DNA from: an uncultured Acidobacteriota bacterium
Lineage (GTDB): Bacteria; Acidobacteriota; Thermoanaerobaculia; UBA5066; Gp7-AA6
Length of the DNA stretch: 64,000 bases
Direction of reading: 5' to 3'
NCBI GenBank assembly: GCA_963764715.1
Contig: CAVXTP010000017.1
Span: 65,524 to 129,523 of the forward strand
Shown: in pieces, positions 4,653 to 34,379 of the stretch
How positions within the stretch are numbered: position 1 is the first letter of the stretch
Layout of the letters: each line of letters starts with the position of its first letter
Made by a program: the position numbers and the translations under genes
Notes under the pieces: generated by a model
The model's database searches: none
Told to the model about the DNA's origin: nothing
Seen by the model: the letters and a program-made list of their open reading frames with translations, nothing else

Positions 4653-4749
4653 CGGGCTTCTACGGTAACCTTCCCGCCGTGTGCGCCGACGTCCGGATCG
4701 CACGCCGCCTGACGGCTCGCGCCGAAGAGGCCGCGCGGGGGATCGTCCC

Positions 4750-7639: not shown

Positions 7640-7829
7640 GGACACGATCCGGCCGGTCCTCCCGGCCCCGGTCCGCGGCGCGAGTAGTCTCCCGAAGTAA
7701 CCGAGGGAGGAGGCTCGCGCCGCGGGAGCGAGCGCGCAGCGAGGGACCAGGCCCGCGGTCGAGCCGGCAGCCCGGCGAGCCGCGGGCCGGTGGCGACAGC
7801 CAGGTCCCGAGAGAGCGCTCGCGACGGTC

Positions 7830-9879: not shown

Positions 9880-9880
<1 letters not shown>
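8864..9880 (+). CDS. CDP-alcohol phosphatidyltransferase with an extra ~130-aa N-terminal domain (nucleotidyltransferase-like/degenerate), similar in architecture to IPCT/DIPPS-type fusions
   Basis: GTG start overlaps the upstream stop. The C-terminal half carries the CDP-OH transferase motif D-G-x2-A-R...G-x3-D-x3-D (DGCDGELARLKFQESRSGGLLDFWGDNIVH) within several TM helices. Confidence 0.75.
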
Positions 9881-11229
<1,349 letters not shown>

Positions 11230-16348: not shown

Positions 16349-17389
16349 ATGCGCCGGTTCCTTTCGCGTCTTGCCGCCGGGGCCCTGCTGGCCGCGGCCG
16401 CGACAGCCGCCCCGGGCCTTCGCCCGGACCCCCCCGCCCCGCCTCCGGGAGTCCCGGCCGAGGACCGGATCCGGCTCGCCGAGGCCTTTCGGCTGGCCGA
16501 CCACGTCGGGGACCGGATCTGGCCGGGCTGGAGCCGCGTCCCGTTCGCCGTGCTCCTCGTCACCGGCGAGACCGAGTACTTCGTCCGCCACGCAAGGCCT
16601 CCCGCGGACGCCCGGCCGATCGGAAGGGACCCCCTGCTCGGCTCCGAGATCTATGCCCGCCCGAGGAGCCTCCCGACGAATCTGCTCGCGACCTTCCCGA
16701 TCGAGGGCATCTCGACCGTCGTCGTCGGACAGGCCTCGAACACCGCGGCGGGCTCGCCGACCGACTGGGTCGTGACGCTCCTCCACGAGCACTTTCATCA
16801 GCTCCAGGACGCGCAGCCGGGATTCACCGAAAAAGTCGCCGCGCTCGGCCTCGCGCGCGGCGACGCGACGGGGATGTGGATGCTGAACTTTCCGTTCCCC
16901 TACGATTCGAAGCCCGTCGGCGAGGCCTACCGCGCGGCCGCCTCGGCGCTGCGCGAGGCCGTCGCCGGCGCCGATCCTGCGGCCTTCCTGGCCGCGCGGG
17001 CGAGGCTGCGCGCGACGCTCGCGCCGGACGACCTTCGGTACTTCGACTTCCAGCTCTGGAAGGAGGGCGTGGCGCGGTACACGCAGGTGCGCGTGGCGCG
17101 CTTCGCGGCCTCCGGGTACGCGCCGCTTCCCGACTTCGCGGCCCTGCCCGGGTTCGTGACGTACGCGGCCCTCGCGCAATCGCTCGCCGGCGCGATCTCG
17201 ACCGAGCTTTCCGAGCTCTCGCTGACCGAGGCGCGGCGCGTCGTCGTCTACCCGCTCGGCGCGGGCGAGGCGTTCCTGCTCGACCGCGAGCGGCCGTGCT
17301 GGCGGGAAGAATATTTTTCCAGGATGTTCACGCTGGCGCCCGCCTTCGATCGAAAGGATTGCGGGAAGGGGACGGCCGCGAGAGGATAG
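16349..17389 (+). CDS. Secreted hypothetical protein (signal peptide MRRFLSRLAAGALLAAAATAAPG; HEHFHQ motif)
   Basis: Good GC3 bias and an N-terminal signal peptide. No family recognised. Confidence 0.5.
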   Translation: MRRFLSRLAAGALLAAAATAAPGLRPDPPAPPPGVPAEDRIRLAEAFRLADHVGDRIWPGWSRVPFAVLLVTGETEYFVRHARPPADARPIGRDPLLGSEIYARPRSLPTNLLATFPIEGISTVVVGQASNTAAGSPTDWVVTLLHEHFHQLQDAQPGFTEKVAALGLARGDATGMWMLNFPFPYDSKPVGEAYRAAASALREAVAGADPAAFLAARARLRATLAPDDLRYFDFQLWKEGVARYTQVRVARFAASGYAPLPDFAALPGFVTYAALAQSLAGAISTELSELSLTEARRVVVYPLGAGEAFLLDRERPCWREEYFSRMFTLAPAFDRKDCGKGTAARG

Positions 17390-20781: not shown

Positions 20782-22299
20782 CTAGTTCCCCTTGAGGATG
20801 TCGATCGACCCGTTCGAGTCGGTCAGCGTCAGCGGACACTTGCCGTCGCCGATGCGCCCGTTGAGGCTCTCGCCCGAGACCGAGCCGGCCACGGTCAGCG
20901 GCAGCTCGGTCTTGATCTTGCCGAACGACGTCCTCGCCTCGACCGTGTAGCCCGCGCCTTCCGGCAGGCGGACCGTGATCGGGCCGAACGAGGTCCGCAG
21001 GGAAACGGGCTGGCAGGCGCCGCCCTTGCCACCGGCGGCGCGCACCTCGATGCCGCCGTTGGAGTTGTCGACGTCGATCTTGCCGTCGACGTCCTGGAGC
21101 CAGACCGAGCCGAACGAGGTCCGTACCTGCGCTCCGCCCCGAATCCCCTGCGCCTTGATGGCGCCGTTGGAGTTCTCGACCGTCAGGTCGCCCGTGACGC
21201 GGTTCGCCTCGGCCGGACCGAAGCTCGTCTTGAGGAAGGCGCCGCCCAGGACGTCCGTCGCCGACACGGGTGCGTTCTCGGCCACGATCCGGAGGCCCTT
21301 CTTCACGTTGGAGGCCGCGACCCGCGCGAAGGAGCCTCGCAGCTCGGCCGTTCCGGCCACGTCGTTGACCGAGATGGCCCCGTTCGAATTCGTCACGGAC
21401 ACGTCGCCGCCGAGGGCCGACATGACGACGCTCCCGAAGGACGAGCGCACGGTTGCCGGGCCCTTGATCGTGTCCGCGCTGACGGCGCCGTTGGAGTTCT
21501 CGACCTCGAGCGAGGACGACAGGTTGCGCGCCTCCACGCTGCCGAACGAGTTGGTGACCGACACCGGCCCCTTCGCGTCGTTGACGCTGACCGCGCCGTT
21601 GGAGCCCGAGATCGTCAGCTTTCCCAGGATCCGCGCGGCCGAGATCGGGCCGAAGCGGTTGCGGACCTGGGCGGCACCCGCGACGTCGTTGACCCCGATG
21701 CTCCCGTTCGAGCCGCTGATCTCGACGTTGCCCGCGTTCGACGTCAGCTCGATCGCGCCGAAGGCGTTCTCGATCTTCTGGTCTCCGCGTCCGTTGCGGA
21801 AGAGAACCTTGCCATTGGCGTTGGTGATCGCGCCGGCGGCCTTCAGGCCTTCGACCGACACGTCGCCGAATTTGTTGCGCGCCGACAACGGCATCGTTTC
21901 CGGCAGGACGATCTCGAAGTCGACGGAGTAGGACACGAACCCGGAGCCCGAGAACCTCCACTTCTTCTCGGGGTACTTCGTTCTGACGACGATCGCCGCG
22001 GCCGTCTCCTCGACCGAGATCGCGATCCCGTCGCCGAACGCCTTCGCCTCGCCGCTCGCGGACGTCGAGACCGCGACGTGCGCGCGGATCCGGACCTCGG
22101 GCAGCGCATGCGTCGTGATCCGCACCGCGCCCTGGCTGTGATCGATTTCGAAGCGCTGGCCGGGCTTGACGGCGAGCGTCTTCGAGAAGTCGCGCTCGTA
22201 GTCGTCGCGGGCCTCGCGGCTCGCGGCGGACAGCGCGGGGGCGAGCGCGGCGAAGGCCAGGAGGGCGGCCGCGGCCCATCGGGAAGGACGAGCGTTCAT
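20782..22299 (-). CDS. DUF4097-type putative adhesin / beta-repeat protein (SNG(A/S)I...V repeat units), secreted
   Basis: Signal peptide MNARPSRWAAAALLAFAALAPALSAA. About 12 tandem ~20-aa repeats of the SNGAISV / SFGSV type. Start at 22299, overlapping the anti-sigma stop. Confidence 0.7.
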   Translation of the reverse strand: MNARPSRWAAAALLAFAALAPALSAASREARDDYERDFSKTLAVKPGQRFEIDHSQGAVRITTHALPEVRIRAHVAVSTSASGEAKAFGDGIAISVEETAAAIVVRTKYPEKKWRFSGSGFVSYSVDFEIVLPETMPLSARNKFGDVSVEGLKAAGAITNANGKVLFRNGRGDQKIENAFGAIELTSNAGNVEISGSNGSIGVNDVAGAAQVRNRFGPISAARILGKLTISGSNGAVSVNDAKGPVSVTNSFGSVEARNLSSSLEVENSNGAVSADTIKGPATVRSSFGSVVMSALGGDVSVTNSNGAISVNDVAGTAELRGSFARVAASNVKKGLRIVAENAPVSATDVLGGAFLKTSFGPAEANRVTGDLTVENSNGAIKAQGIRGGAQVRTSFGSVWLQDVDGKIDVDNSNGGIEVRAAGGKGGACQPVSLRTSFGPITVRLPEGAGYTVEARTSFGKIKTELPLTVAGSVSGESLNGRIGDGKCPLTLTDSNGSIDILKGN

Positions 22300-22961
22300 G
22301 ACTTGACCTCTTTCATCAGATCCTGCAGGGTGCGCTGCTTCTCGCGGTACGCGGCGAGCAGCTCCCGGCGCAGGTGGGTGTTGTAGCGGTTCTGTTCGAT
22401 CGACGATTTCAGGTCCGCGATCGCGGAGTCGAGGACCGCGAGCTTCTCGCGGTAGTTCAGGGCGAGCGGGGAGCTCGCGGCCTGGAGCTTCGGCGCGGCC
22501 AGGCGGGACAGTTTCTCGATCGACTCGACGTAGCCCTTCTCGGCCGCTTCGACCTCGTCGGCGGCGGCGTCGGCGAGGATGGGATCGCGGGTCGTCTCCC
22601 AGCGGCTGGCGAGCGGGTCGCGCCCGCCGCTGTTGCGGAAGACCCACAGGCCCGCGGTCGCGATCGCGAAGAGAGCGATGAGGGCGCCGGCCGGAAGGAG
22701 CCGGAGCCACGACGTCGACGGCACGGACTCGGATCCGGCCGGCTTCGCGGACTCCTCGGCCAGGCGCTGCCGGATCGAGGGCCAGAGCTCCGGGGAGGAC
22801 CACCGGACCCGCAGGGACGGCGCGGCGGCCGAGAGGCGGCGCCATTCCGCGAGCTCGCCGGCGCAGGCGGCGCAATCCCGCGCGTGCTCTTCGACGGCTT
22901 CGAGGAGCCCCGGGGCGCCGCTTTCGAGCGCCCGTTCGAGATCGCGGCACGCGGCTTTCAC
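22296..22961 (-). CDS. Anti-sigma factor (zinc-finger HxxxCxxC-type N-terminus, one TM helix)
   Basis: The GTG at 22961 overlaps the sigma stop. The N-terminus has HARDCAACAGEL, a TM segment LRLLPAGALIALFAIATAGLWVF and a C-terminal coiled region. Confidence 0.65.
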   Translation of the reverse strand: MKAACRDLERALESGAPGLLEAVEEHARDCAACAGELAEWRRLSAAAPSLRVRWSSPELWPSIRQRLAEESAKPAGSESVPSTSWLRLLPAGALIALFAIATAGLWVFRNSGGRDPLASRWETTRDPILADAAADEVEAAEKGYVESIEKLSRLAAPKLQAASSPLALNYREKLAVLDSAIADLKSSIEQNRYNTHLRRELLAAYREKQRTLQDLMKEVKS

Positions 22962-23521
22962 GGGGCCTCCGGCGGGAGAAACGCGCCCGCGGCCGAAAGC
23001 GTCTTCTGCAGCCGCCGCTTGGCGCGAAACAGCAGGCCCCGGGAAGCCGCCTCGGGCACCTCGAGGATCTCGCCGGCTTCGCGATGCGAGAGGCCCTCGA
23101 CCTCGCAGAGGAGAAACGCCGCCCGTTCGCGGGCGTCGAGGCGCGCGAGCGCCGCCTCGATCGCCAGTCGCAGCGCAGGATCCGTGTCGCGGACCGGCTC
23201 CTGCGCGATCGTCTCCGGCAGCGGGCCCTCCGCGCGGCGTCGGTTCTTGCGCATCAGGTCGTAGCAGGTGTTGACGAGGATGCGGTAGAGCCAGGTCGAG
23301 AGACTCGCGCCGCCGCGAAAGCCGGGCGCGGCCCGGTAGGCTTTGAGCATCGCCTCCTGGACCGCGTCTTCGGCGTCGGCGGCGTTGCCGAGAAGATTGG
23401 CTGCGATCGACTTCATCCGGTCTCCGTGCTCCGTGAAGAGCCATTCGAAGGCGGGCAGGCGGCCTGCTCGTAGACCCTCGAGAAGCTCCCCTTCGCCGGG
23501 CCGGACGTCGCTGCCTGACAG
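22958..23521 (-). CDS. RNA polymerase ECF (sigma-24/sigma-E type) sigma factor, probably with a non-canonical CTG start
   Basis: Region 2 (DAEDAVQEAMLKAYRA...STWLYRILVNTCYDLMRK) and region 4 (LSHREAGEILEVPEAASRGLLFRAKRRL) are present. The first ATG (23416) lies inside region 2.1. The in-frame extension to CTG at 23521 restores the typical N-terminus and has AAGGAG 6 nt upstream. Confidence 0.75.
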   Translation of the reverse strand: MSGSDVRPGEGELLEGLRAGRLPAFEWLFTEHGDRMKSIAANLLGNAADAEDAVQEAMLKAYRAAPGFRGGASLSTWLYRILVNTCYDLMRKNRRRAEGPLPETIAQEPVRDTDPALRLAIEAALARLDARERAAFLLCEVEGLSHREAGEILEVPEAASRGLLFRAKRRLQKTLSAAGAFLPPEAP

Positions 23522-23744: not shown

Positions 23745-24248
23745 ATGCGCCGGGTCGTTCTGCTCGCCGCCGTCATCGCGATTTCGGGTGCCGCGCAGGC
23801 GGCCGCCCAGCAGGTCGTCTTCGTCGTCCGTCACGCGGAGAAGATTTCGGACGAGGACGAGCGGTTGACGGAGGCCGGGCGCGCCCGGGCCGCGCGCCTG
23901 GCCGGGATGCTGCGGCGCTCGGGGATCACGGCGATCTACTCGACCGACACCGAGCGCACGCTCGGCACGGCGCGGCCGCTCGCCGACGCGCTCGGAATCA
24001 AAATCGCCATCTACGAAGCGAAGGCGATGAGCGGCCGCGTGGATTCCGCGGCCCTCGTCGAGCGGCTGCGCCGCGAGGCGCCCCGCGGCACGGTGCTCGT
24101 CGTCGGCCACAGCAACACGGTCCCGTCGCTTCTCGCGGCGCTCGGCTGCGGGGAGACCGTCTCGATCGGCAACGACGAGTACGACAACCTGTTCGTCGTC
24201 ATCCCGAAGGAGACCGGAAGAGCGACCCTCGTGCGGCTGAGGTACTAG
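23745..24248 (+). CDS. Histidine-phosphatase-superfamily protein (SixA/phosphoglycerate-mutase-like), secreted
   Basis: Signal peptide followed by the RHAEK catalytic motif (VVFVVRHAEK) and a downstream GHSNT (His). Confidence 0.75.
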   Translation: MRRVVLLAAVIAISGAAQAAAQQVVFVVRHAEKISDEDERLTEAGRARAARLAGMLRRSGITAIYSTDTERTLGTARPLADALGIKIAIYEAKAMSGRVDSAALVERLRREAPRGTVLVVGHSNTVPSLLAALGCGETVSIGNDEYDNLFVVIPKETGRATLVRLRY

Positions 24249-24262
24249 CGGCGGTTGCGCTT

Positions 24263-26455
24263 CTACTGAAGCGAGAACGTCTTGACGATGAACACCGCCA
24301 TCTGGCCACGGGTGCTGTTGGCCGAAGGACAGTAGAGCGGAGGGCTGGCGGAGCAACCGCCCGTCACGCCCTCGGCCGCGAGCTGTTCGATCCAGTCGGC
24401 GAACGGCGACGGACAGGCGACGTCGTCGAAGGTCCCGGCGCAGGGTGGAGGCGCGAATCCCGATCCGTGCTCGCCCTTCATGAGGAAGACGGCCATCTGG
24501 TCCCGTCGCACCGGATCTTGCGGGCAGAACTTCCCGCCGCCGCAGCCGCCCGTGATTCCCTCGGCGGCCATCTGCTCGATCCACGGCGCGAACGACGATG
24601 AACACGGCACGTCGGAGAACACGCCCTGGCAAGGCGGCGGCGCGTAGCAGAGCCCGTGCTCCGCCTTGAGGATGAACACCGCCATCTGCTGCCGCAGCGT
24701 CGGTTGATTGACACCGTACATGCCTCCTCCGACGCCGGCGGTGATTCCGTTGGACACGAGCGTCGTGACGAACGCGTAGAACTGCGTACCGGAGTCGACG
24801 TCGAGGAAGTTCGAGACCCAGCCCTTGACCAGCGTCCCGCTCGTGCCGTCCGTGTTCGTCACGACGAGATCGTTGACGGTCCCGGCCGCCAGGATCGGAC
24901 TCGTGGCGTTGATCTGACCTCCGTTGACGACGTTGACGCCCGTCGCCGCCTGGCCGCCGATCGTCACCGCCGCGCCCGCGGCGAAGTCCGTCCCGAAGAT
25001 CGTGATCGGGATACCGACGGTGGGCGGACCCGACGGGGGCGAGACCGAGAACGGCAGGCGCTGCGAGAACTCGGAGGTCCGGCCGGTCGCGTGGTTGGTC
25101 GCCGTCATGCTGATTCGGGCGCCCGCCTCGGTCGCGACGGGGAGCGTGGTGTCGATCGACACCGTTCCCGCGCCGTCGGTCGTGACCTGGTCCGAGCCCA
25201 GGTAGGTCTTCCCCTCGTCGAAATCACGGGGGAAGTTCGAGCATGCCGGGTTCGAATAAAAATCGATGTCGTACATCGTCGAAGCCAGCGAGTGCAGCGC
25301 GGCCTGGACGTGCGTGGTCGCTCCCGTCGTGACCGACTTCAGGAGCGGGAAGTTCTGGATGCCGTCCACGTCGCCGGGGTCGTTCCTGGTGACCCCGTCG
25401 GACAGCATGTCGATGCCGAGGCCCGAGAAGCCGGGGTCTCCCCCGTTGCCATAGATGGAGTTGCCCCGGATCGTGCCGCCGCTGAAGACGCTTCCGATCA
25501 CGCCGATGCGCGTCATACCCGTCACGATGTTGCCCTCGCCGGGATTGACGCCGCCGACGATGGCGTCGATGCCGGGATCGATGCCGTAGGCGGTCGCGGG
25601 GGGAAACACGACGGTTCCGCTGGCGTCGACGCCGATCCGGTTGCCCTGGATTACCGTGCCGTCACACTGCGCCTGGATCGCCGCCCCCCGAAAGCCGGCG
25701 ATGACATTGCCGAGGACCGAGTTCGTGGCGGCGGCGGCCGAGCAGGACCCCAGGGTCACGCCGGTGCTCGTCGGAGCCTGCGTCAGCGCGACCGTGCCGG
25801 TCGAGTCCGTGCCCATCAGGTTGTTCTGGACGACGAATCCACTCGGGTTGCTCGAGTGCGCCGCGGAATACGCCGAGCCGATGACGTTGCGCTGCGCGAG
25901 CGCCGGGCCCCCGACGGTGCCCGAAATCATGTCGACGCCGACGTGGTTCCCCGAGGCCGTCAGCCCCGAGGCGTCGATTCCGATGAAGCAGCCCTCGACA
26001 TGCGCGGCCACCTCGTCGAAGCACACGACGGCCTCGTTGAATCCCCCGTTGATCACGAGACCCCGGACCGTTCCCCCGTTGATCCCGAAGATGATGCCGT
26101 CGGCATTCGGAATATTGGCTGCCGAGAGGACGATTTTCAGGACGGCGTTCGAGCCGAAGGTCGCCGTGTTCACGGACGCGCCCGGCTGGGTGTACCCGTC
26201 GATCGTCGCGATGTCGTTGACACCGGGCAGCTGCGAGGTCGGCGCGATCGTGCACACGCCCGAGCCGTCGCAGCCGGCTCCGGTGACGTTGAACGCGACC
26301 GTGTCGGCGCCGGCGTTCGCGTTCGCGTCGAGGATCGCCTGCCGGAGCGAGCCGGCCCCTGCGTCGTTCGTGTTCGTGACGGTGAACGTGGCCGCGGAGA
26401 GTCTCGCGGCGACGATCACTCCCGCAGCGATGCACAGGCAGAGCGCGACTTTCAC
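24263..26455 (-). CDS. Secreted right-handed beta-helix protein with three C-terminal Cys-rich SLH-like repeats (paralog A)
   Basis: GTG at 26455 preceded by GGAGG. Signal peptide VKVALCLCIAAGVIVAARLSAA. Central Gly/Asn/Thr-rich parallel-beta-helix repeats. The C-terminus has 3x [F.DV...F..(W)IE.(L/M)AAEG(I/V)TGGC...(F/Y)CP....TR.QMAVF..K]. Confidence 0.7.
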   Translation of the reverse strand: MKVALCLCIAAGVIVAARLSAATFTVTNTNDAGAGSLRQAILDANANAGADTVAFNVTGAGCDGSGVCTIAPTSQLPGVNDIATIDGYTQPGASVNTATFGSNAVLKIVLSAANIPNADGIIFGINGGTVRGLVINGGFNEAVVCFDEVAAHVEGCFIGIDASGLTASGNHVGVDMISGTVGGPALAQRNVIGSAYSAAHSSNPSGFVVQNNLMGTDSTGTVALTQAPTSTGVTLGSCSAAAATNSVLGNVIAGFRGAAIQAQCDGTVIQGNRIGVDASGTVVFPPATAYGIDPGIDAIVGGVNPGEGNIVTGMTRIGVIGSVFSGGTIRGNSIYGNGGDPGFSGLGIDMLSDGVTRNDPGDVDGIQNFPLLKSVTTGATTHVQAALHSLASTMYDIDFYSNPACSNFPRDFDEGKTYLGSDQVTTDGAGTVSIDTTLPVATEAGARISMTATNHATGRTSEFSQRLPFSVSPPSGPPTVGIPITIFGTDFAAGAAVTIGGQAATGVNVVNGGQINATSPILAAGTVNDLVVTNTDGTSGTLVKGWVSNFLDVDSGTQFYAFVTTLVSNGITAGVGGGMYGVNQPTLRQQMAVFILKAEHGLCYAPPPCQGVFSDVPCSSSFAPWIEQMAAEGITGGCGGGKFCPQDPVRRDQMAVFLMKGEHGSGFAPPPCAGTFDDVACPSPFADWIEQLAAEGVTGGCSASPPLYCPSANSTRGQMAVFIVKTFSLQ

Positions 26456-26481
26456 GAAACCTCCTCGTGTCGTTGGAACTC

Positions 26482-28641
26482 TCAAAACGACAGACCGAAC
26501 GTCTTGACCATGAACACGGCCATCTGGCCGCGGGTGTTGTTGTTGCCCGGGCAGTAGTTGCCTCCCCCGCAGCCTCCGGTGATGTTCTCGGCCGCGAGGC
26601 GCTCGATCCAGTCCGCGAAGGTCGACGGGCAGGGAACGTCGCCGAAGACCCCCACGCAGGCCGGCGGCACGTAGCTCGATCCGTGCTCTCCCTTGAGGAG
26701 GAACACCGCCATCTGGTCGCGCCGCACCGGGTTCTGCGGGCAGAACTTCCCGCCGCCGCAGCCGCCGGTGATCCCTTCGGCGGACATGGCCTCGATCCAC
26801 GCCGCGAAACTGGACGGGCAGGGCACGTCGGAGAACGTGCCCGCACACGGCGGCGGCGTGTAGCACAGCCCGTGCTTGGCCTTCAGCAGGAAGACCGCTA
26901 TCTGCTGGCGCAGCGTCGGGTTGTCGACGCCATAAAGCCCGCCGCCGATGCCGACCGTGATCGCGTTCGAGACGAGGCCGGTGACGTAGAAGTAGAACTG
27001 GTTGCCGGAATCCACGTCGAGGAAGTTCGAGACCCAGCCCTTCACGAGGGTCCCCGACGTTCCATTGGTGTTCGTGACGACGAGGTCGTTGACGGAACCG
27101 GGCGTCAACGCCGGAGTCCCGCCGGTGATCTGGTTGAAGCCGTTGACCGAGATGTCCGTCGCCGGCTGGCCGCCGACCGTCACCGTCGCGCCGGCCTCGA
27201 AATCGGTGCCGGCGATCGTCATCCCGTTTCCGGCCGCGGCGGGGCCGGCGGCCGGCGTCACCGAGAAGGGCAGGCGCTGCGAGAACTCCGAGGTCCTTCC
27301 GCCGGGCGTCGTCGCCGTGACCGAGATCCGCGCGCCCGCCGCCGTCGCCACGGGCAGCGAGACGTCGAAGGACCCGACGCCCGCGCCGTCCGTCGTGACC
27401 TGGCTCGAGCCGAGATACGTCTCCCCTTCGAGGAACTCCCGCGGGAAGTTCGAGCACGCCGCGTTCGAGTAGAAGTCGAGGTCGAACACCGTGGACGGCG
27501 TCGAGTGCAGCAGGCCCTGAACGTGCGTCGGGTTGCCGGTCGTCACCGACTTCAGGACCGGAAAGTTCTGGATGCCGTCCGCCTCGGCCAGATCGTTCGG
27601 CGTTGCCCCGTCGTTGCCCACGTCGATCCCGAGGCCCGCGTTGTCGTGGATGGAGTTGCCGCGGATCGTCACGCCGTCCACGACGTTCACGAAGATTCCG
27701 TTCCCGGAGCTGTACGCGATGATGTTGCCCTGGCCGGTCCCGATCCCCCCGATGGTGACATCGTCGTTCATCACGGTGATCGCGCCCGGCCCCGTGCCGA
27801 GCGGCAGAGTTCCCGTCACGTCCGTGCCGAGCTTGTTGCCCTGGATCACGGTTCCGAGCCCCGCGCCGTCGATCAGGCTGAATTCGGCGGCGGCCATGAC
27901 GTTGTCGCGGATCGTGACGCTCGGCGACGCACCGGCGACGGCGGTGCCGGGACCGATGGCCGAGGTTCCCGCCGCGTCGGTTCCGAAGAGGTTGTTCCGC
28001 ACCAGCAGGCCGGGCTGCCCTTCACACTCGATGTGATAGATCGTCGCGGCGGCGAAGAGATTCCGATCGGCCGGGTTCGGGCCGCCGACGACCGTCCCGG
28101 ACCCCACCACGTCGACGACCGAGACGGCGGTCGGATCGGCCGTGTGCCCGTCCGGCGCGACACCGAAGAAGCAGCCCGTGATGTGGGTGTCCGTTCCGCC
28201 CAGGATGTCGATGGCCGGATGCCAGTCCTTCCGGAAGACGAGGCCCCGCACGGTCGCCGGGCCCGTCACCGTGAAACAGAGCTGGTTCGAGAGGTTGACC
28301 GCCGAGAGGACGATCTTCAGGACCGCGTTCGTGCCCTGCGCGAGCGTGTTGACCGAGGCCCCCGGCTGGGTGTAGCCGTCGATCGTGACGGGGTCGGTGA
28401 CGTTGACCAAAGGATTGAGCGGCGCGATCGTGCAGACGCCGCTGCCGTCGCAGCCCGAATCGGACCCCGGAATGTTGAACGCGATCGTGTCGGCGCCGGC
28501 GTTGTTGTCGGCGTCGATGATCGCCTGCCGGAACGAGCCCGCGCCCGAGTCGTTGGTGTTGGTCACCGTGAACGTCGCCGCCGAGAGATTCGAGATCAGG
28601 AGAACGCCCGAGGCGAGGCCGACGCCGAGTCGATGTCTCAT
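26482..28641 (-). CDS. Secreted right-handed beta-helix protein with three C-terminal Cys-rich SLH-like repeats (paralog B)
   Basis: ATG at 28641 (MRHRLGVGLASGVLLISNLSAA). Same architecture as paralog A with high identity (shared AATFTVTNTND..AGAGS..QAI.DA.N.AGADT.AFN and C-terminal repeats). Confidence 0.7.
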   Translation of the reverse strand: MRHRLGVGLASGVLLISNLSAATFTVTNTNDSGAGSFRQAIIDADNNAGADTIAFNIPGSDSGCDGSGVCTIAPLNPLVNVTDPVTIDGYTQPGASVNTLAQGTNAVLKIVLSAVNLSNQLCFTVTGPATVRGLVFRKDWHPAIDILGGTDTHITGCFFGVAPDGHTADPTAVSVVDVVGSGTVVGGPNPADRNLFAAATIYHIECEGQPGLLVRNNLFGTDAAGTSAIGPGTAVAGASPSVTIRDNVMAAAEFSLIDGAGLGTVIQGNKLGTDVTGTLPLGTGPGAITVMNDDVTIGGIGTGQGNIIAYSSGNGIFVNVVDGVTIRGNSIHDNAGLGIDVGNDGATPNDLAEADGIQNFPVLKSVTTGNPTHVQGLLHSTPSTVFDLDFYSNAACSNFPREFLEGETYLGSSQVTTDGAGVGSFDVSLPVATAAGARISVTATTPGGRTSEFSQRLPFSVTPAAGPAAAGNGMTIAGTDFEAGATVTVGGQPATDISVNGFNQITGGTPALTPGSVNDLVVTNTNGTSGTLVKGWVSNFLDVDSGNQFYFYVTGLVSNAITVGIGGGLYGVDNPTLRQQIAVFLLKAKHGLCYTPPPCAGTFSDVPCPSSFAAWIEAMSAEGITGGCGGGKFCPQNPVRRDQMAVFLLKGEHGSSYVPPACVGVFGDVPCPSTFADWIERLAAENITGGCGGGNYCPGNNNTRGQMAVFMVKTFGLSF

Positions 28642-28757
28642 GGGACCTCCGTCGTGCGGGGATCGGCGGCAATCTAGGGGCCGGAGGCGGCTCCGGAAAT
28701 AGCATGGCCATGCGGTCCGGCCGCGAGCACGATCGGTGCGATTCCGGGGACGGGCGC

Positions 28758-29423
28758 CTACTCGATCAAGCCGCGCCGCAGCCCGCGGCTCACGGCCTCG
28801 GACTTCGAGTGCACGTGGAGCTTGTCGTAGACGCTCCGCACGTGGTCCCGGACCGTGTTGATCGACACGCCCAGCCGATCCGCGCAGGTCTGGTAGCTGT
28901 GCCCCTCCGCCAGCAGACGCAGGAGACTTCGCTCCTGGGCCGTCAGGGGCGACTCTCCCGGAGGCCGCGCCGGCGAACGCTGGAAGTGCTCGACCATCCG
29001 GCGGGCGATCTCGGGCGACAGCGGGGAGCCGCCGCTCCATGCCTGGCGCACCGCTTCCGCGATCTGCGCCGGGGGCGTCTTCTTGAGGAGGTACCCGCAG
29101 GCGCCGTTGCGGATCGACGCGAAGACCTGCTCCTCTTCCTCGTACACCGTCAGCATCAGGACCCGCGTTTCGGGGAAACGATCGCGGATGACCGCGACGC
29201 CCTCGACGCCGGACATGCCCGGGAGATGGATGTCGAGAAGGAGCACGTCGCAGGGAGCCGCGTCGAGCCTCGCGACGGCCTCTTCGACGGACGGAAAGGC
29301 GCCGACGCAGGCGAGCCCCGGCGAGCGGTCGAGGATCGCGCCGAGACCCTCGCGGATCAGGCGCTTGTCCTCGACGAGGGCCACGCGGATCCGGCTCGGA
29401 GGCGGCGTCGGCATCGAACGCAT
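28758..29423 (-). CDS. Two-component response regulator, NarL/FixJ (LuxR-HTH) family
   Basis: REC domain (VALVEDKRLIREGL...DVLLLDIHLPGMSG) plus C-terminal LuxR HTH (LTAQERSLLRLLAEGHSYQTCADRLGVSINTVRDHVRSVYDKL). Confidence 0.85.
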   Translation of the reverse strand: MRSMPTPPPSRIRVALVEDKRLIREGLGAILDRSPGLACVGAFPSVEEAVARLDAAPCDVLLLDIHLPGMSGVEGVAVIRDRFPETRVLMLTVYEEEEQVFASIRNGACGYLLKKTPPAQIAEAVRQAWSGGSPLSPEIARRMVEHFQRSPARPPGESPLTAQERSLLRLLAEGHSYQTCADRLGVSINTVRDHVRSVYDKLHVHSKSEAVSRGLRRGLIE

Positions 29424-29458
29424 CCTCCGGCGCTACGCGGCCGGCCGCAACCGCATCC

Positions 29459-32400
29459 TCATGCGGAGCGCGCCGCCCGGCCGCGCAGGGGCACCCGCAC
29501 GCGGATCCGCGTGCCTCCCGGCCTCCGGGAATCCGCCTCGAAGGTGCCGCCGAGGCCGAGGGCGCGCGCCTTCATGTTGGCGAGGCCGTGCCCCGCGCAC
29601 GCGCCGGCCGCGCCTTCCGCGAACCCGATCCCGTCGTCCTCGACCTCGATCGAAAGCGTCTGCGCCTCCGGCGCGATGCGGATCGAGGCCCGTCCCGCGC
29701 GGGAATGGCGGGCGACGTTCGTCAGGGCCTCCTTGAGCACCAGGTAGATCTGCCGCCGGGTCTCGGGCTCGAGCGCGCGCTTCTCGAAATCCGGCGCGAC
29801 CTCGAGGGTCCAGGCGATCCCCCGGCCCTCGAGGGCGTTCGCGGCGAAGTGCCGGATCCGCGCGAGCAGGCTCGCGGCGTCGTCCCGGCGCGGGTCCGTG
29901 GACCACACGATGTCGCTCATGGAGTCGACGAGCGCACGCGCCCGCTCGCCGATCTCCTGGAGCACCTTTCCGGGATCGCGGCCGGGCGATCCCCGCGGCA
30001 GCTCCGAGAGGATCGCGATCTCCGAGAGGCCGGCGCCGACGTCGTCGTGGAGGTCGGTGGCGACGCGCGTGCGGACCCGGTCGATCGCGAGCGCCCGCTT
30101 GAGGCGGCTGCGGTGGAGGGCGTAGGCCGCGGCGAGGGCCAGGAGAGCGAGGCCTCCGATCACCTCCGGCCGCTTCCAGAACGACGGGAGAACGCGGAAG
30201 CGGACCTCGGCCTCCCTCCCTCCCATCGATCCGTCGTTGGCGATGGCGCGCACGCGGAAGCGGTAGGCGCCCGACGGCAGCCTCGCGTAGACGACCGACG
30301 GCCGGGACGTCGGCGCGCTCCAGTCGCGGTCGAGGCCGTCGACCCGGTACTGGTAGCGCGGCCGGCCACCCGGCGCGAAATCGAGCGCGACGAAGTCGAT
30401 CTCGACGGAGGTCGGCTCGGTCGCGCGCGCCGACAGCTGCGCCGAGGTCACGCCGAGCTCGGCGAAGGGCTCGCGGACGCCGTTGACGAGCACGCGCGTG
30501 ACCCGCAGCGGCAGCGCCTTCCGAGGCGCGTCGGGGACCGGCTCGAGCCACGAGAGGCCCTCCGAGGAGCCGAACCAGAGACGTCCCCGGCGGTCCCGGA
30601 GGCAGGTCTCGATCACTCCGCGGGCGAGACCGTCGTCGCTCGTGAAGTGCTGGACGTTCCCGCTCGCCGGATCGACCCGGTCGAGGCCCCGCTCGGTCCC
30701 GGCGTAGATGCGCCCCTGCGGGTCCTCGGCCAGCGAATACGCGTTGTCGCTCGCCAGGCCCTGCGCCGAGGAGACGCGTTCGAAACGCACGGAAGCCTCG
30801 GCCGGCCGGTCGACCCGGGCGAGGCCGCCGCGGCTCGTCGCGATCCATAGCCGTCCCGCGCGGTCGACGTGGAGGGCGCGGACCGATCCCGGCGGCAGCC
30901 CTTCGCGCTCGCCGAACGCGGCGGACTTCCCGCCGTGCCGGCGGACGAGCCCGCCCCGAAGGAAGCCGATCCACACGCCCCCGCCCGGGTCTTCGGCGAA
31001 CGCCATCGGCAGCTCCGCCGGGATGCCGTCGGCCGCCGAAAGAGTCTCGATCCGGTCCGTCGAGCGTTCCCAGCGCGCGAGCGGCCGATCCGTGCCCGCG
31101 AGCCCCATCCAGAGGTCCCCCCGGCGGTCTTCGAAGAGACGGTAGACCTGGTCGGAGGGCAGCCCGTCGCGCTGCGTGTAGACCCGTCGCGGCGCGACCT
31201 GCCCGAGCCGCTCGAAGGGCACCGCGGGAAACCGGAAGAGCCCCGCGAAGGTCGGCACCCACCACTCGCCGGCGGAGTCCCGCAGCGTGAGTTGATTCCA
31301 TCCCCATCCGTAGGACGTACCCGCCGGAAGGCGCACGCGCTGCGTGTGAAAGCGCTCCCCGTCGAAGCACTCGAGGAAGCCGTCGTCGCCCCCGACGTCC
31401 TCGGGTCGCCGGCCACGGGTGAATGCGCAGGGCGCGCCGCCGACGCCCGCGAAGAGGGCGCTCACCCGGTCGCTCGAGAGCCCGTCGCGGGAGTCGAGCC
31501 GCCGGAAGCCGTTCCGGGCGAGCCGCATGACGCCCGCGTCGTCGCTTCCGATCCAGAGGTTCCCCTCGCCGTCTTCCGCGAGCGACCAGATCCCGAAGCC
31601 CGCCAGCCCCTGCGCCATCGTGTGGCTCCGGACCGACGCGCGATCGGCGGCGATCTCGGAGACGCCGCCGAAGCAGGCCGCCCAGATTTCTCCGTCGGAA
31701 GTTCTCTTCAGCGCCGTGACGTGGTTTCCGGCCAGGCCGTTCTCGCTCCCGAACGCGTGCCGGGCGACGAGCTCGCCCGATGCGGAGCGGCGGACCTCCG
31801 CGATTCCCTCGGCGAGCGTCCCGACCCACAGCGGGCCGTCGGGCTCGGCGAGCAGGGCGCGGACCGTTCGCGGCGGCCCGTTCGGACCGCCGACCCGAAC
31901 GGCCGTGCTCCCCGCCCGAAGCCGGAAGAGGCCGCCCTCGGTTCCGACGAAGAGATCTCCGCCGGGGCCCCGGGCGAGCGCGTTGACGATGCGGGCGTCC
32001 GCATTGCCCGGGGGTTCGAAACGGACGCGCTCCGCCGCCCAGCTCCGCCCCGAGGGCGACACACGATAGAGCCCGTCGCGCGTTCCCGCCCAGAGCACGC
32101 CGCCGTCCTCGAGCAGCGCCTCCACCTCGTCGCCGCCTCCCGCGCCGGCGGGATGGACCACGAGCATCGACGCCGGCGGCCCGGTCGGCTCCCGGGCCGG
32201 ATTCCAGCGCACGATCCCCCGGTTGGTCGCGGCCCAGTACGCACCGTCGCCCGCCTCCAGGAGGTCGCCCACCTCGGGACCGGGCAGTCCCTCGGGCACG
32301 CCGAGGCCGGTGAACCCGTAGCCGTCGAAGCGCGCGATCCCGTCGGACGTTCCGAGCCAGAGGTAGCCGTGCGAGTCGGGAAGGATCGCGTGGATCCGGT

Positions 32401-32521
32401 CGCTCGGGAGGCCGTCGGCCGTCGTGTAGAGCTTGAGGGGGAGCTGCTCGCCGAACGTGGTGCCGGCGACCGCCGCGATGGCGGCGAACGAGACGGCGCG
32501 GAGCGCGCGTCCGGGATTCAT
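29459..32521 (-). CDS. Hybrid-architecture sensor histidine kinase with periplasmic two-component-regulator propeller (Y_Y_Y / beta-propeller) repeats, one TM, HisKA_3 and HATPase_c
   Basis: N-terminal signal/TM. Repeated GLPSD.(I/V)..(L/I)..D..G.LW(I/V)GT blades. ...TDLHDDVGAGLSEIAI (HisKA_3 H-box) and a C-terminal ATPase (EVEDDGIGF, GHGLANMKARA). Confidence 0.8.
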   Translation of the reverse strand: MNPGRALRAVSFAAIAAVAGTTFGEQLPLKLYTTADGLPSDRIHAILPDSHGYLWLGTSDGIARFDGYGFTGLGVPEGLPGPEVGDLLEAGDGAYWAATNRGIVRWNPAREPTGPPASMLVVHPAGAGGGDEVEALLEDGGVLWAGTRDGLYRVSPSGRSWAAERVRFEPPGNADARIVNALARGPGGDLFVGTEGGLFRLRAGSTAVRVGGPNGPPRTVRALLAEPDGPLWVGTLAEGIAEVRRSASGELVARHAFGSENGLAGNHVTALKRTSDGEIWAACFGGVSEIAADRASVRSHTMAQGLAGFGIWSLAEDGEGNLWIGSDDAGVMRLARNGFRRLDSRDGLSSDRVSALFAGVGGAPCAFTRGRRPEDVGGDDGFLECFDGERFHTQRVRLPAGTSYGWGWNQLTLRDSAGEWWVPTFAGLFRFPAVPFERLGQVAPRRVYTQRDGLPSDQVYRLFEDRRGDLWMGLAGTDRPLARWERSTDRIETLSAADGIPAELPMAFAEDPGGGVWIGFLRGGLVRRHGGKSAAFGEREGLPPGSVRALHVDRAGRLWIATSRGGLARVDRPAEASVRFERVSSAQGLASDNAYSLAEDPQGRIYAGTERGLDRVDPASGNVQHFTSDDGLARGVIETCLRDRRGRLWFGSSEGLSWLEPVPDAPRKALPLRVTRVLVNGVREPFAELGVTSAQLSARATEPTSVEIDFVALDFAPGGRPRYQYRVDGLDRDWSAPTSRPSVVYARLPSGAYRFRVRAIANDGSMGGREAEVRFRVLPSFWKRPEVIGGLALLALAAAYALHRSRLKRALAIDRVRTRVATDLHDDVGAGLSEIAILSELPRGSPGRDPGKVLQEIGERARALVDSMSDIVWSTDPRRDDAASLLARIRHFAANALEGRGIAWTLEVAPDFEKRALEPETRRQIYLVLKEALTNVARHSRAGRASIRIAPEAQTLSIEVEDDGIGFAEGAAGACAGHGLANMKARALGLGGTFEADSRRPGGTRIRVRVPLRGRAARSA

Positions 32522-32564: not shown

Positions 32565-34379
32565 CTACCAGCCGACCGGCTTTCCCTTGTTCTGCTCGTC
32601 GAGCCACTTCTGGAGCGGGGCGAAGTAGTCGCGGATCGCGGTCGCGTCCATCTGCCGCTGGCCCGTCAGGGCCTCGAGCGCGTCGGGCCAGGGACGGGAC
32701 TGCCCCATCGCCAGCGTGTCGCGCAGGCGCTTGCCCGCCGCCGCGTTTCCGTAAATCGAGCAACGGTTGAGCGCTCCCGTGCAACCCGCGGTCTTCGTCA
32801 GCGCCCGGTGGAACTGGAACTGCAGGATGTCGGCGAGGAAGTAGCGCGTGTACGGAACGCCCGCGGGCACGTGGTACTTCGCGCCCGGGTCGAACGCGTC
32901 GGCCGGACGCGCGATCGGCGGCGCGACGCCCTGGTACTTCAAGCGCAGGTCCCAGAACGCCTTGTTGTAGTCGGCGGGCGGAATCTCCCCGGAGAAGACC
33001 TTCCAGCGCCACTGGTCGATCAGGAGGCCGAAGGGCAGGAAGGCCACTTTCTCGAGCGCCTTCTGGAGAAGCAGGCCGATGTCCCTGGACGCGTCGGGGG
33101 CCGAGGAGAGGAGGCCGAGCTTCACGAGGTACTCCGGCGTCACCGAGAGCGCGACCGTGTCGCCGATCGCTTCGTGAAAGCCGTCGTTGGCGCTGTCGCG
33201 GAAGAGCACGGGCTGCGTGTCGTAGGCCCGCTGGTAGTAGTTGTGGCCGAGCTCGTGATGCACGGTGACGAAATCCTCGGCCGTGATGTCGATGCACATC
33301 TTGATCCGGAGGTCGTCCACGTAGTCGATGTCCCAGGCGCTCGCGTGGCAGACGACCTCGCGGTCCTGCGGCTTCACGAACATCGAGCGCTCCCAGAAGG
33401 TCTTCGGGAGCGGGTCGAAGCCGAGGGAGCTGAAGAAGCCCTCGCCGTACCGGACCATCTGGCGCGCGTCGGTCTTCCGGGACTTGAGGATCTCGGTCAG
33501 GTCGTAGCCGGGATCGGCCCCCTTCGGCGCGACCAGCGGATAGACGTTGTCCCAGGTCTGGGCCCACATGTTGCCGAGCAGATGGGCCGGGATCGGTCCG
33601 GTCGCCGGCACGGCGTCGCCGTACTTTTCCCGCAGCTTCCACCGCACGTACGCGTGGAGCGAGACGTAGAGCGGACGCACCTGCTCCCAGAGCCGGTCGA
33701 GCTCGGCTGCGAACGCCTCCGGCGCCATGTCGTACTTCGAGCGCCACATCGCGCCCGTGTCCTTGTAGCCGAGCTCCCGCGCGCCCTTGTTGGCGAGCTC
33801 GACGTACCGCACGTAGTTCGGCTGGATGGGCGGCGCGATCGTGTGCCAGCCGGCCCAGACGTCGAGGAGCTGCTTCGCGTCCCGCGACGTGGCCATGATC
33901 TTCGTGATGTCCTCGAGGTCGAGGCACTTTCCCTCGGGCGGGCAGTACTTGCCCTTGCCGTACATGCCCTCCATCGCCGCCCCGAGCCGCGTCAGCTCCG
34001 CCGCCTCGGCCGGGTCCCCGGGTGCCGCGACCGTCAGCGCGAGCTTCAGAAGCTTCAGCTTGCGCGCCGTCTCGGCGTCGGCAGGGACGCCGTCGAACCG
34101 CGTCGCCTGCTTGGCATACCGGACCCCGGCCGAGATCGCCTTCTCGTTGGCCTGGGCCGCCAGAATCTCGGTGTCGTCCGTGATGTACGTCGACTTGACC
34201 CAGTCGGCGCGGCTCGAGTCGATCCAGAGCCTCAAGAGGTCCTTCTCGGCCGCCTCGACGAAGGCCTTCGCCTCGCCGGCGGTCGGCGCCGCCGCCGCGG
34301 TCTGGGCCGCAGCCTCAGCGGACACGAGTGCCCCCGCCAGTAACAAACCGGCCGCGAGGCCGGAAAGCGGTCTCCTCAT
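32565..34379 (-). CDS. Peptidase M2 family (angiotensin-converting-enzyme-like peptidyl-dipeptidase), secreted
   Basis: 604 aa with signal peptide. HHELGH zinc motif plus downstream EAIGD; the overall length and layout match bacterial ACE homologues. Confidence 0.85.
   Translation of the reverse strand: MRRPLSGLAAGLLLAGALVSAEAAAQTAAAAPTAGEAKAFVEAAEKDLLRLWIDSSRADWVKSTYITDDTEILAAQANEKAISAGVRYAKQATRFDGVPADAETARKLKLLKLALTVAAPGDPAEAAELTRLGAAMEGMYGKGKYCPPEGKCLDLEDITKIMATSRDAKQLLDVWAGWHTIAPPIQPNYVRYVELANKGARELGYKDTGAMWRSKYDMAPEAFAAELDRLWEQVRPLYVSLHAYVRWKLREKYGDAVPATGPIPAHLLGNMWAQTWDNVYPLVAPKGADPGYDLTEILKSRKTDARQMVRYGEGFFSSLGFDPLPKTFWERSMFVKPQDREVVCHASAWDIDYVDDLRIKMCIDITAEDFVTVHHELGHNYYQRAYDTQPVLFRDSANDGFHEAIGDTVALSVTPEYLVKLGLLSSAPDASRDIGLLLQKALEKVAFLPFGLLIDQWRWKVFSGEIPPADYNKAFWDLRLKYQGVAPPIARPADAFDPGAKYHVPAGVPYTRYFLADILQFQFHRALTKTAGCTGALNRCSIYGNAAAGKRLRDTLAMGQSRPWPDALEALTGQRQMDATAIRDYFAPLQKWLDEQNKGKPVGW

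Follow-up and report, generated by a model that had tools for sequence, protein, structure and literature searches.

A predicted regulon of cysteine-bearing SLH beta-helix proteins beside a propeller-type two-component system in an acidobacterial genome

Four consecutive genes of a Thermoanaerobaculia (Acidobacteriota) genome, all on the minus strand, encode a sensor histidine kinase, a response regulator and two paralogous proteins with signal peptides, B and A, each of which joins a beta-helix to three C-terminal S-layer homology (SLH) domains. They occupy positions 24263-32521 of a 64-kb stretch of DNA, hereafter the window, exactly from the stop codon of paralog A to the start of the kinase. 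The reading that we favour, and to which we assign a probability of about 60%, is that the sensor-regulator pair controls the two paralogs, and that these are a diversifying pair of beta-helix proteins anchored to the wall by SLH domains that are braced by Cys pairs. It builds on the gene model, the domain identities, the SLH fold, covariation of the cysteines, synteny with related loci, two conserved sequence boxes and the variability profile of the paralogs. The four genes are as follows:

29459..32521, minus strand, sensor histidine kinase, 1020 aa (Pfam; transmembrane segments from the sequence)
28758..29423, minus strand, NarL/LuxR (FixJ)-type response regulator, 221 aa (Response_reg and GerE)
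26482..28641, minus strand, paralog B, 719 aa, ATG start after GGAGG (gene model, Pfam)
24263..26455, minus strand, paralog A, 730 aa, GTG start after GAGGAGG, 26 nt past the stop codon of B (gene model, Pfam, AlphaFold2)

An earlier note on this DNA had proposed the order kinase, NarL-type regulator, B and A on the minus strand, and both the gene model and the Pfam domains bear it out. The intergenic gaps are 35 nt between kinase and regulator, 116 nt between regulator and B, and 26 nt between B and A. The two paralogs share the following domain series, given for A in window positions with the residues of an AlphaFold2 model in brackets, and for B in residues:

26455-26393, minus strand, signal peptide of A (residues 1-21)
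26392-25376, minus strand, right-handed beta-helix of A (~22-360)
25375-25061, minus strand, beta-sandwich of A (~361-465)
25060-24812, minus strand, IPT/TIG domain of A (~466-548)
24811-24647, minus strand, SLH1 of A (this and the next two, residues 549-730, are two-helix SLH repeats)
24646-24458, minus strand, SLH2 of A
24457-24266, minus strand, SLH3 of A
Residues 1-21 of B, signal peptide
Residues ~22-351 of B, beta-helix
Residues ~352-455 of B, beta-sandwich
Residues ~456-538 of B, IPT/TIG domain
Residues 539-593 of B, SLH1, without a loop Cys
Residues 594-656 of B, SLH2
Residues 657-719 of B, SLH3

Both proteins begin with a signal peptide that ends in LSA before ATFTVTNTND, and both end in three repeats of ~60 aa, so that the shared signal peptide, N-terminus and C-terminal repeats described earlier are all present. 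The beta-sandwich and the IPT/TIG domain between the helix and the repeats had been overlooked. For the latter, PF01833 gives 31.2 bits in A and 28.5 bits in B against a cut-off of 20.9, and Foldseek matches to the IPT domains of EBF and plexin agree with this assignment in A. The model of A, built with 74 homologues, has a mean pLDDT (predicted local distance difference test) of 92.8 and a pTM (predicted template modelling score) of 0.88.

As judged by Pfam, profile comparison, alignment to SbsB and Foldseek, the C-terminal repeats are genuine SLH domains. Compared as whole proteins with the hidden Markov model (HMM) PF00395, A scores 52.5 and B 40.6 bits (gathering cut-off 20.8), and A-SLH1 (34.6), A-SLH2 (26.5) and B-SLH2 (23.4) exceed the cut-off as single repeats. 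The 185-aa tail aligns along all three SLH domains of SbsB (4AQ1), while a profile made from 54 diverse repeats with the Cys-bearing loop described below matches the SLH domains of Sap (3PYW/6BT4) at E = 2.8e-17, those of SbsB, and OmpM-type SLH entries (8BZ2, 8BYS and 8BYM) at E = 1e-7 to 2e-6. Structure prediction points the same way: residues 550-730 of A (block-mean pLDDT 81-97, mostly >90) fold into the pseudo-trimeric "three-pronged spindle", which Foldseek aligns with the SLH trimers of Sap and SpaA (3PYW, 6BT4, 6CWC and 6CWH) at a TM(target) of 0.80-0.85 and an rmsd (root-mean-square deviation) of 2.6-3.7 Å over ~180 columns. We rejected the possibility that the repeats belong to a defined domain unrelated to SLH, as the sole other Pfam signal was a sub-threshold match to DUF7569. 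"Divergent", the word chosen in the earlier note, is fair for some of the repeats; the family assignment itself is not in doubt.

In SpaA and Sap, SLH-Gly29 and SLH-Arg43, the latter part of the TRAE-type motif, bind the pyruvylated wall polymer (PMC6081394), and in SpaA SLH-Trp13 is the tryptophan that stacks on the sugar. The equivalents of Gly29 (G574, G637 and G700) and Arg43 (R588, R651 and R716) occur in every repeat of A, at the canonical spacing of 14 residues, or 16 in the repeat with a long loop, and these residues, like the glycines of the G-x-x-x-G motif, are invariant in the 74 homologues. The likeness to the Gram-positive trimers of B. anthracis Sap (3PYW/6BT4), P. alvei SpaA (6CWC/6CWH) and G. 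stearothermophilus SbsB (4AQ1) thus takes in the three tandem repeats, the fold, the Pfam family and both ligand-binding residues. Unlike these, the module described here is C-terminal, reads xRxQ instead of TRAE, does not keep SLH-Trp13 and belongs to an acidobacterial, presumably diderm, host; in its SLH2 and SLH3 both SLH-30 and SLH-36 are Cys and a further Cys pair spans linker and repeat, whereas Sap and SbsB have no Cys at these sites in the alignments.

SLH domains also occur in a diderm envelope in the OmpM/SlpA-type tethers of diderm Terrabacteria (8BZ2/8BYS/8BYM), but there an N-terminal SLH domain is fused to an outer-membrane beta-barrel and tethers the outer membrane, while here a C-terminal SLH triple follows a soluble passenger. 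Exoenzymes and other exoproteins with a C-terminal SLH triple are established in Firmicutes. They share with A and B a passenger, Ig-like spacers and three SLH domains, and presumably the logic of a secreted passenger held at the wall; they differ in that the passenger of A and B is a hypervariable beta-helix of no recognisable catalytic family, found in apparently recombining tandem arrays beside what would be a dedicated two-component system.

The cysteines of the SLH module come in pairs. Repeat 1 has no loop Cys, with Val/Ile and Gly at the two loop positions, and SLH2 and SLH3 contain two pairs each. The loop pair, placed by alignment to the Sap SLH domains, consists of SLH-30, the residue that follows Gly29, and SLH-36, which is flanked by the conserved Phe and Pro; the second pair links the inter-repeat linker (PPxC) with the start of the repeat (DVxC). 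The two loops of A read as follows:

24521..24559, minus strand, Cys-clamped loop of SLH2: G633-ITG-G637(SLH-Gly29)-C638-GGGKF-C644-P645, with C638 and C644 invariant in the 74 homologues
24326..24370, minus strand, Cys-clamped loop of SLH3, long form: G696-VTG-G700-C701-SASPPLY-C709-P710, with C701 and C709 invariant in the 74 homologues

The Cys pairs claimed earlier are accordingly present in SLH2 and SLH3 and missing from repeat 1. The accompanying idea that they stand in place of the SLH core did not survive alignment, since the framework G-x-x-x-G ... F-x-P ... T-R-x-E is kept and the cysteines lie at the non-conserved positions SLH-30 and SLH-36. We counted the two loop positions on 862 HMM-found SLH repeats in 274 related proteins. 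Both cysteines of the loop pair were present in 704 repeats and neither in 147; the 11 repeats with only one are all truncated at the end of the protein. For the second pair the corresponding numbers are 235, 246 and 6, and each of the 6 has another Cys nearby. Such near-perfect covariation suggests, at the level of sequence, that the cysteines form disulfides. That the four cysteines of SLH2 and of SLH3 instead make up a metal (Cys4) site or a redox switch we hold to be highly improbable: all four are invariant in each such repeat of the family, which would suit a metal site, but ~60% of the Cys-loop repeats in other proteins have the loop pair without the second pair, and two cysteines do not suffice for a tetrahedral site. 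The frequent occurrence of the loop pair by itself argues for two independent disulfides, and the export of the proteins also speaks against a metal or redox role. What stands of the divergent, disulfide-stabilised wall-anchoring module proposed earlier is thus an SLH module whose cysteines covary as pairs, and not a new domain. Two further invariant cysteines of A, C405 in the beta-sandwich and an extra C603 (in GLCY), might connect their domains by a disulfide; a crude motif test gave this no support.

The kinase comprises an N-terminal signal or transmembrane segment, a periplasmic sensor of ~760 aa made of a double beta-propeller and a Y_Y_Y domain, a transmembrane helix, HisKA_3 and HATPase_c. 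Pfam finds Reg_prop at 151 bits in 7 stretches as well as Y_Y_Y, HisKA_3 and HATPase_c, and the sensor has homologues in the periplasmic domains of hybrid two-component systems from Bacteroides (HTCS; 4A2L at E = 4e-47, also 3V9F and 3OTT). The first of these structures is that of BT4663, a heparin sensor. The regulator combines PF00072 Response_reg (80 bits) and PF00196 GerE (48.7 bits), an architecture of the NarL/FixJ (LuxR-type) class; its best NCBIfam similarities, to MctR, MadR and NarL, all fall under the cut-off, and we assign it to none of them. An alternative ATG at 29414 would shorten it to 218 aa. The propeller-type kinase and NarL-type regulator of the earlier note are thus both confirmed. 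HTCS such as BT4663 (PDB 4A2L/4A2M) resemble the present pair in their periplasmic sensor of a double Reg_prop propeller and Y_Y_Y, and in adjoining secreted proteins that are presumably under their control. They differ in being single hybrid proteins with an AraC-type output, whereas here a HisKA_3 kinase, which ends in HATPase_c and contains neither a receiver nor a helix-turn-helix (HTH) domain, is separate from a regulator of receiver (REC) and GerE domains. There are also no SusC- or SusD-like genes among the 54 window genes scanned, and hence none of the adjacent SusC/SusD-like pairs that mark a polysaccharide utilization locus (PUL).

Kinase, regulator and one or more paralogs occur in the same order in seven related loci (L003, L004, L125-L128 and L205). 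The last of these is an independent soil-metagenome contig (ERZ1759591), which matches 6.4 kb of the window at 94.9% identity and again has the kinase, the regulator, called there from the ATG equivalent to 29414, and B. Along with the gene order, we identified two sequence boxes that flank the regulator gene in the window and are reproduced in L205:

29452..29467, strand not assigned, box 1, perfect palindrome CCGCAT-GAGG-ATGCGG, straddling the kinase stop codon, ~37 nt upstream of the regulator ATG at 29414
28699..28716, minus strand, box 2, ACCGCATGGCCATGCTAT, containing the palindrome GCATGG/CCATGC, in the 116-nt gap between regulator and B, 57 nt upstream of the start codon of B

The half-sites of box 1 are conserved around a variable 4-nt spacer in all related loci checked (L001, L003, L004, L125-L129 and L205), and the pattern GCAT-N4-ATGC occurs 4 times in the window compared with 0.45 +/- 0.7 times in shuffled sequences. 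Box 2 is the only strongly conserved block, ACCGCATGnCCATGCTAT, in the alignment of the gaps between the regulator and the first paralog. Save for its unconstrained central bases, and in L205 also the first base, it is exact in L001, L003, L004, L125, L126, L127 and L205, with one mismatch in L128 and two in L129. It is found once per locus, always between regulator and first paralog, and no other match at <=2 mismatches was found in the ~1.05 Mb of loci collected. Both boxes share CCGCATG. Invariant half-sites around a free spacer fit a dimeric regulator of the LuxR/NarL type, and we regard the boxes as predicted operators. Near many distant homologues of the regulator (~53-58% identity), mostly downstream of the regulator gene, lies a related box, AACGCAT[GA]NNCATGCTCT. 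In L133 and L134, whose regulator homologues are 57% and 56% identical, regulator and related box precede secreted proteins with the same TVTNTN..GSLRQA beta-helix cap; in other such loci the box is followed by different secreted proteins.

It is quite unlikely, in our estimate, that the two-component system is a mere neighbour without direct control, the boxes serving another factor such as a sigma factor or a global regulator, or box 1 acting as an RNA hairpin. Box 1 can indeed fold into a hairpin of 6 bp with UU after it, a search of the locus for a sigma-70-like promoter found none, and a gene for an extracytoplasmic function (ECF) sigma factor lies 1 kb downstream of A; one related array, in L002, holds at least 9 SLH proteins in 22 kb and has no two-component system directly upstream; and the case for a regulator-box interaction is one of sequence. 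Yet the related boxes track homologues of the regulator down to ~53% identity beside different secreted genes, the shared CCGCATG with invariant half-sites and variable spacers is what a dimeric LuxR/NarL-type HTH protein leads one to expect, and each box has a single, fixed place in a locus. The link of the paralogs to the two-component system, as first suggested from the window, is thus strengthened by conserved synteny and conserved boxes, and the unit of kinase, regulator, boxes and array offers a concrete, testable regulon in Thermoanaerobaculia with predicted operators.

Some other sites deserve mention beside the boxes. A third match to GCAT-N4-ATGC, GGCATCGACATGCT, at 25402-25419 (minus strand) inside A, was rejected as probably a coding coincidence, since it encodes the conserved peptide G-I-D-M-L; matches of this type recur ~1.1 kb into the A-type gene of the orthologues, which in L001, L003, L004 and L126 is the first paralog. 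Candidate terminators in the locus were likewise rejected, being found only at the level of shuffled sequence, and one of them is box 2. In lower-GC relatives (L133, L134, L137, L143, L167 and L190), whose regulator homologues are ~54-58% identical, a related box, mostly AACGCATGAACATGCTCT-like, precedes varied secreted proteins, some of them >1300 aa, and from sequence the pairing of box and regulator may represent a wider type of regulon in Acidobacteriota.

A and B share 58% of their residues along the full length. Their DNA is ~75% identical where alignable, with a longest exact shared run of 32 nt, and on these figures we ruled out that they are duplicates introduced by assembly, a concern raised in the earlier note; they are diverged paralogs, and B is reproduced in L205. 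A search of the window by tblastn returned A and B only, with no third copy. In L001, L003, L004 and L126 the gene that comes first after the regulator is an orthologue of A, with 66-70% identity. B lacks a close orthologue in other species, where its best match reaches ~60%; a relative from its 90%-identity cluster lies on L205. Against NCBIfam, A and B gave only a sub-threshold match, through their SLH part.

Divergence is concentrated in the body of the beta-helix. At residues 121-330, where most of the insertions and deletions fall, A and B share 23-40% identity, compared with 60-93% in the cap (31-120) and from residue 360 onward. None of the Asp, Glu, Lys or His residues of 121-330 reaches 80% conservation, which leaves no constellation of catalytic residues there; only R131, R189 and R330 are conserved, together with structural Gly and Asn. 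The pattern, read from sequence, is that of a diversifying binding face on a constant scaffold and not of a fixed active site. The fold itself, a right-handed beta-helix, is supported by the AlphaFold2 model and by weak Foldseek matches. At the level of sequence, PF13229 Beta_helix scores 22.4 bits in B, under its cut-off of 25.9, and finds no match in A, and the first 485 residues have no relative in the PDB at E <= 1.

The notion of a surface enzyme or lyase, put forward in the earlier note together with tandem duplication as a source of variation, fares differently in its two parts: the paralogs have diversified, and neither profile, PDB relatives nor conserved residues point to an enzyme. 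As a full alternative, the paralogs would be wall-anchored polysaccharide lyases or hydrolases whose released oligosaccharide is sensed by the kinase in a PUL-like feedback loop. We consider this unlikely, although the right-handed beta-helix fold, a sensor of the class found in glycan-sensing HTCS and the C-terminal SLH triples generally known from Firmicutes exoenzymes would all suit it, as would the structural neighbours found by Foldseek, which are weak for phage tailspike depolymerases (E ~1e-4, TM 0.2-0.27) and better for the best helix match, 8WM1_A, deposited as "DHS dehydratase" (E = 2.9e-11, TM(target) 0.54; a literature search on this entry returned nothing). Apart from the lack of a conserved Asp, Glu, Lys or His, of a Beta_helix score above cut-off and of a PDB sequence relative, the hypervariability of the body speaks against a fixed active site.

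Residues 358-370 of A (window 25346-25384), and the same site in B, form an invariant segment, N-D-x-G-D-x-D-G-x-Q-N-F-P, that closes or caps the beta-helix and by eye looks like a calcium-binding loop. The "...TNTNDSGxGSLRQAI" cap looks by eye like that of "choice-of-anchor Q" or CSLREA-type proteins, with which A and B also appear to share repetitive "IGTDxxG" coils; this is a lead only, and membership is not supported by NCBIfam, where no such match was found at E <= 1.

Related loci hold the paralogs in tandem arrays. L003 has 3 paralogs, L004 at least 6, and L001 at least 5 together with fragments of the regulator. Across the Thermoanaerobaculia arrays of L001-L004 (for example L002:38-22187 and L004:10001-22178) the number of beta-helix/TIG/SLH paralogs ranges from 3 to at least 9, and genes of the Radical-SAM (Radical_SAM_N2 and DUF2344) and PTPS families recur just upstream of these arrays. 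In L205 the B-A pair gives way to a single gene, which resembles B as far as the TRGQMAVF codons of SLH3 and A from there on, with the downstream flank of A behind it (L205:6300-6475 against window 26400-26573 and 24175-24354). This arrangement may have arisen by unequal recombination, as a deletion or a duplication, within the conserved SLH-coding ends, or it may be an assembly chimera, which is less likely because the exact run shared by A and B at that place in the window is only 11 nt. If it is not a chimera, it would imply that copy number changes by recombination in the SLH-coding ends.

Arrays of this kind raise the question of whether the paralogs are alternative subunits of an S-layer or envelope lattice, the arrays giving surface variation comparable to the Sap/EA1 and SbsA-D switches and the two-component system setting the timing. 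The SLH triple, the large tandem arrays, the variable exposed region on a conserved scaffold and a possible difference in copy number between contigs that are 95% identical at the locus are all compatible with this proposal. It is nevertheless distinctly improbable: the SLH domains are C-terminal, and a protein of 720 aa made of a beta-helix and Ig-like spacers has the look of an anchored passenger more than of a lattice former; with 26 nt between them, B and A are probably co-expressed rather than switched; and no inversion or promoter-switch elements were seen.

Under the favoured reading, of a sensor-regulator pair that governs wall-anchored and diversifying beta-helix proteins, the kinase, whose periplasmic double-propeller/Y_Y_Y sensor is of the class of glycan-sensing Bacteroides HTCS, would phosphorylate the regulator, which would bind the two palindromic boxes, one just before its own gene and the other 57 nt before B. 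B and A would be transcribed together from the region of box 2 and exported by the Sec pathway as modular proteins with a conserved helix cap, a hypervariable helix body, a beta-sandwich, an IPT/TIG spacer and an SLH pseudo-trimer, which would bind them non-covalently to a glycopolymer linked to peptidoglycan. If Sap and SpaA are a guide, this polymer would be pyruvylated, given that SLH-Gly29 and SLH-Arg43 are kept in all three repeats. Of the two disulfides predicted in each of SLH2 and SLH3, that between SLH-30 and SLH-36 would clamp the loop directly after the ligand-binding Gly29, and the other would tie the inter-repeat linker to the start of the repeat. The variable face of the helix would be the working end, most likely a putative binding surface for a variable ligand, probably a glycan, and would diversify by tandem duplication and by unequal recombination within the conserved SLH-coding 3' ends.

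Several observations weigh against this reading, among them the missing sigma-70-like promoter and the free-standing L002 array noted above. Scored singly, B-SLH1 (14.8 bits) and B-SLH3 (16.7) lie under the PF00395 cut-off, and A-SLH3 has no match at all. SLH-Trp13 is not retained in A, where position 13, counted back from Gly29, is Q558, S621 or P684; position 14 is Phe (F559, F622 and F685) and position 17 Trp or Phe, and a register shift of one residue is possible. As the tryptophan is not kept, the ligand may differ. No pyruvyl transferase (PF04230, CsaB) was found among the 54 genes scanned in the window. With only ~37 nt between it and the regulator start, box 1 does not sit easily as a classical activator site. 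By itself, a Sec signal peptide takes a protein of a diderm no farther than the periplasm. A Sec signal combined with SLH domains in a presumably diderm host would place A and B under the outer membrane, and their description as surface proteins was not borne out.

Next to the locus itself, the Cys-loop form of SLH turned out to be abundant. Searching with the tail retrieved 42,241 cluster representatives at E <= 1e-3, a number that falls to 13,830 at E <= 1e-10 and to 2,968 at E <= 1e-30, in proteins of 213 to 1546 aa, and the loop G[ILVM][TS]xGC...CP is present in 150 of the 150 top matches. Of 307 Cys-loop repeats, 69% have a loop of 5 residues and 29% one of 7. In species-representative genomes, at least 84 loci matched a degenerate DNA pattern for GITxGCxxxx[FY]CP. 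Among the matches listed, every translated site reads as an SLH repeat, and the hosts include Acidobacteriota (Thermoanaerobaculia and Bryobacterales among them), Chloroflexota, Acidimicrobiia and other Actinomycetota, Beta- and Gammaproteobacteria, Polyangiaceae, Gemmatimonadales and Nitrospirae. Pfam SLH is matched by 63 of 65 Cys-loop proteins that lack the TVTNTN..GSLR cap, and their passengers comprise TIG, FG-GAP, PKD, NosD/beta-helix, Chlam_PMP, propellers, BNR/Sortilin, Calx-beta, M23 peptidase and metallophosphoesterase domains. The repeat that the earlier note singled out for a search in other genomes is thus widespread over many phyla and many passengers. Relatives are already named "S-layer homology domain-containing protein" in public sources, and the Cys-loop SLH is an annotated SLH and not a new domain; we found no paper that describes its Cys form, nor any on SLH in Acidobacteria or Thermoanaerobaculia or on CsaB in Acidobacteria. 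A paper on LysBT1 deals with non-disulfide cysteines in another context.

Taken further, these data allow a broader proposal that is possible but doubtful, namely that the Cys-clamped SLH is a distinct and very widespread envelope anchor for a wall ligand unlike the pyruvylated polymers of Firmicutes, and that in Thermoanaerobaculia it displays hypervariable beta-helix arrays under a system of the glycan-sensor type with its own operator. A disulfide that locks the loop beside the binding glycine, together with the loss of the stacking Trp in the Thermoanaerobaculia form, is the reason why the wall ligand could differ. The phyla concerned are the diderm Acidobacteriota, Myxococcota, Beta-/Gammaproteobacteria, Gemmatimonadota and Nitrospirota, in addition to Chloroflexota and Acidimicrobiia. 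Should the proposal be true, lineages with the Cys-clamped SLH would possess an unrecognised wall glycopolymer, and the cassette would be an acidobacterial counterpart of a system that senses and displays for environmental polymers. To our knowledge, SLH anchoring has been studied almost solely in Firmicutes and in the outer-membrane tethers of Terrabacteria. A Cys-braced form of the fold in tens of thousands of protein clusters from rarely cultured soil phyla, on diverse passengers, does not overturn current understanding; it extends a known anchor and a known class of sensor to new hosts and adds a new subtype. If the Cys pairs are disulfides by the binding glycine, they would provide a simple handle on wall retention and on the polymer bound.

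The genomic setting marks the four genes as a discrete cassette, for the genes on either side are unrelated to them. The window has a G+C content of ~70%, with 56 genes marked out by third-position GC, and no riboswitch or other known RNA was matched in it by Rfam. On the 3' side of A lie a convergent histidine phosphatase gene, the ECF sigma factor and a probable anti-sigma factor; above the kinase are an M2 (ACE-like) peptidase, an RNB-domain (RNase II-type) exoribonuclease and an OPT transporter. The M2 peptidase (32565-34379, minus strand), directly upstream of the kinase, is a full-length angiotensin-converting-enzyme-like protein (759 bits) with a signal peptide. At 20782-23416 (minus strand) the ECF sigma gene is followed by a 221-aa protein without a Pfam match, the probable anti-sigma factor, and by a secreted protein of 505 aa that consists of short "SNGAISV...SFG" repeats and matches no Pfam family significantly.

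Farther away, ~800 nt at 16563-17359 contain neither a called gene nor an Rfam match, and a 90-nt tRNA-Gly(GCC) predicted by ARAGORN at 5840-5929, on the minus strand inside a plus-strand coding sequence, is probably a false positive. The plus-strand cluster at 3555-11229 encodes an LPG-synthase-like membrane protein, a MobA-like nucleotidyl transferase, a class-III aminotransferase, a GFO/IDH/MocA oxidoreductase, a CDP-alcohol phosphatidyltransferase with an N-terminal extension and a myo-inositol-1-phosphate synthase, a set that suggests a pathway to an inositol-derived lipid or solute. A second plus-strand cluster, at 48218-55271, is one of lipid modification, with a fatty-acid desaturase, an amine oxidase-like flavoprotein, DUF1365, DUF1475, DUF2062 and DUF1295 proteins and two methyltransferases similar to cyclopropane-fatty-acid synthase.

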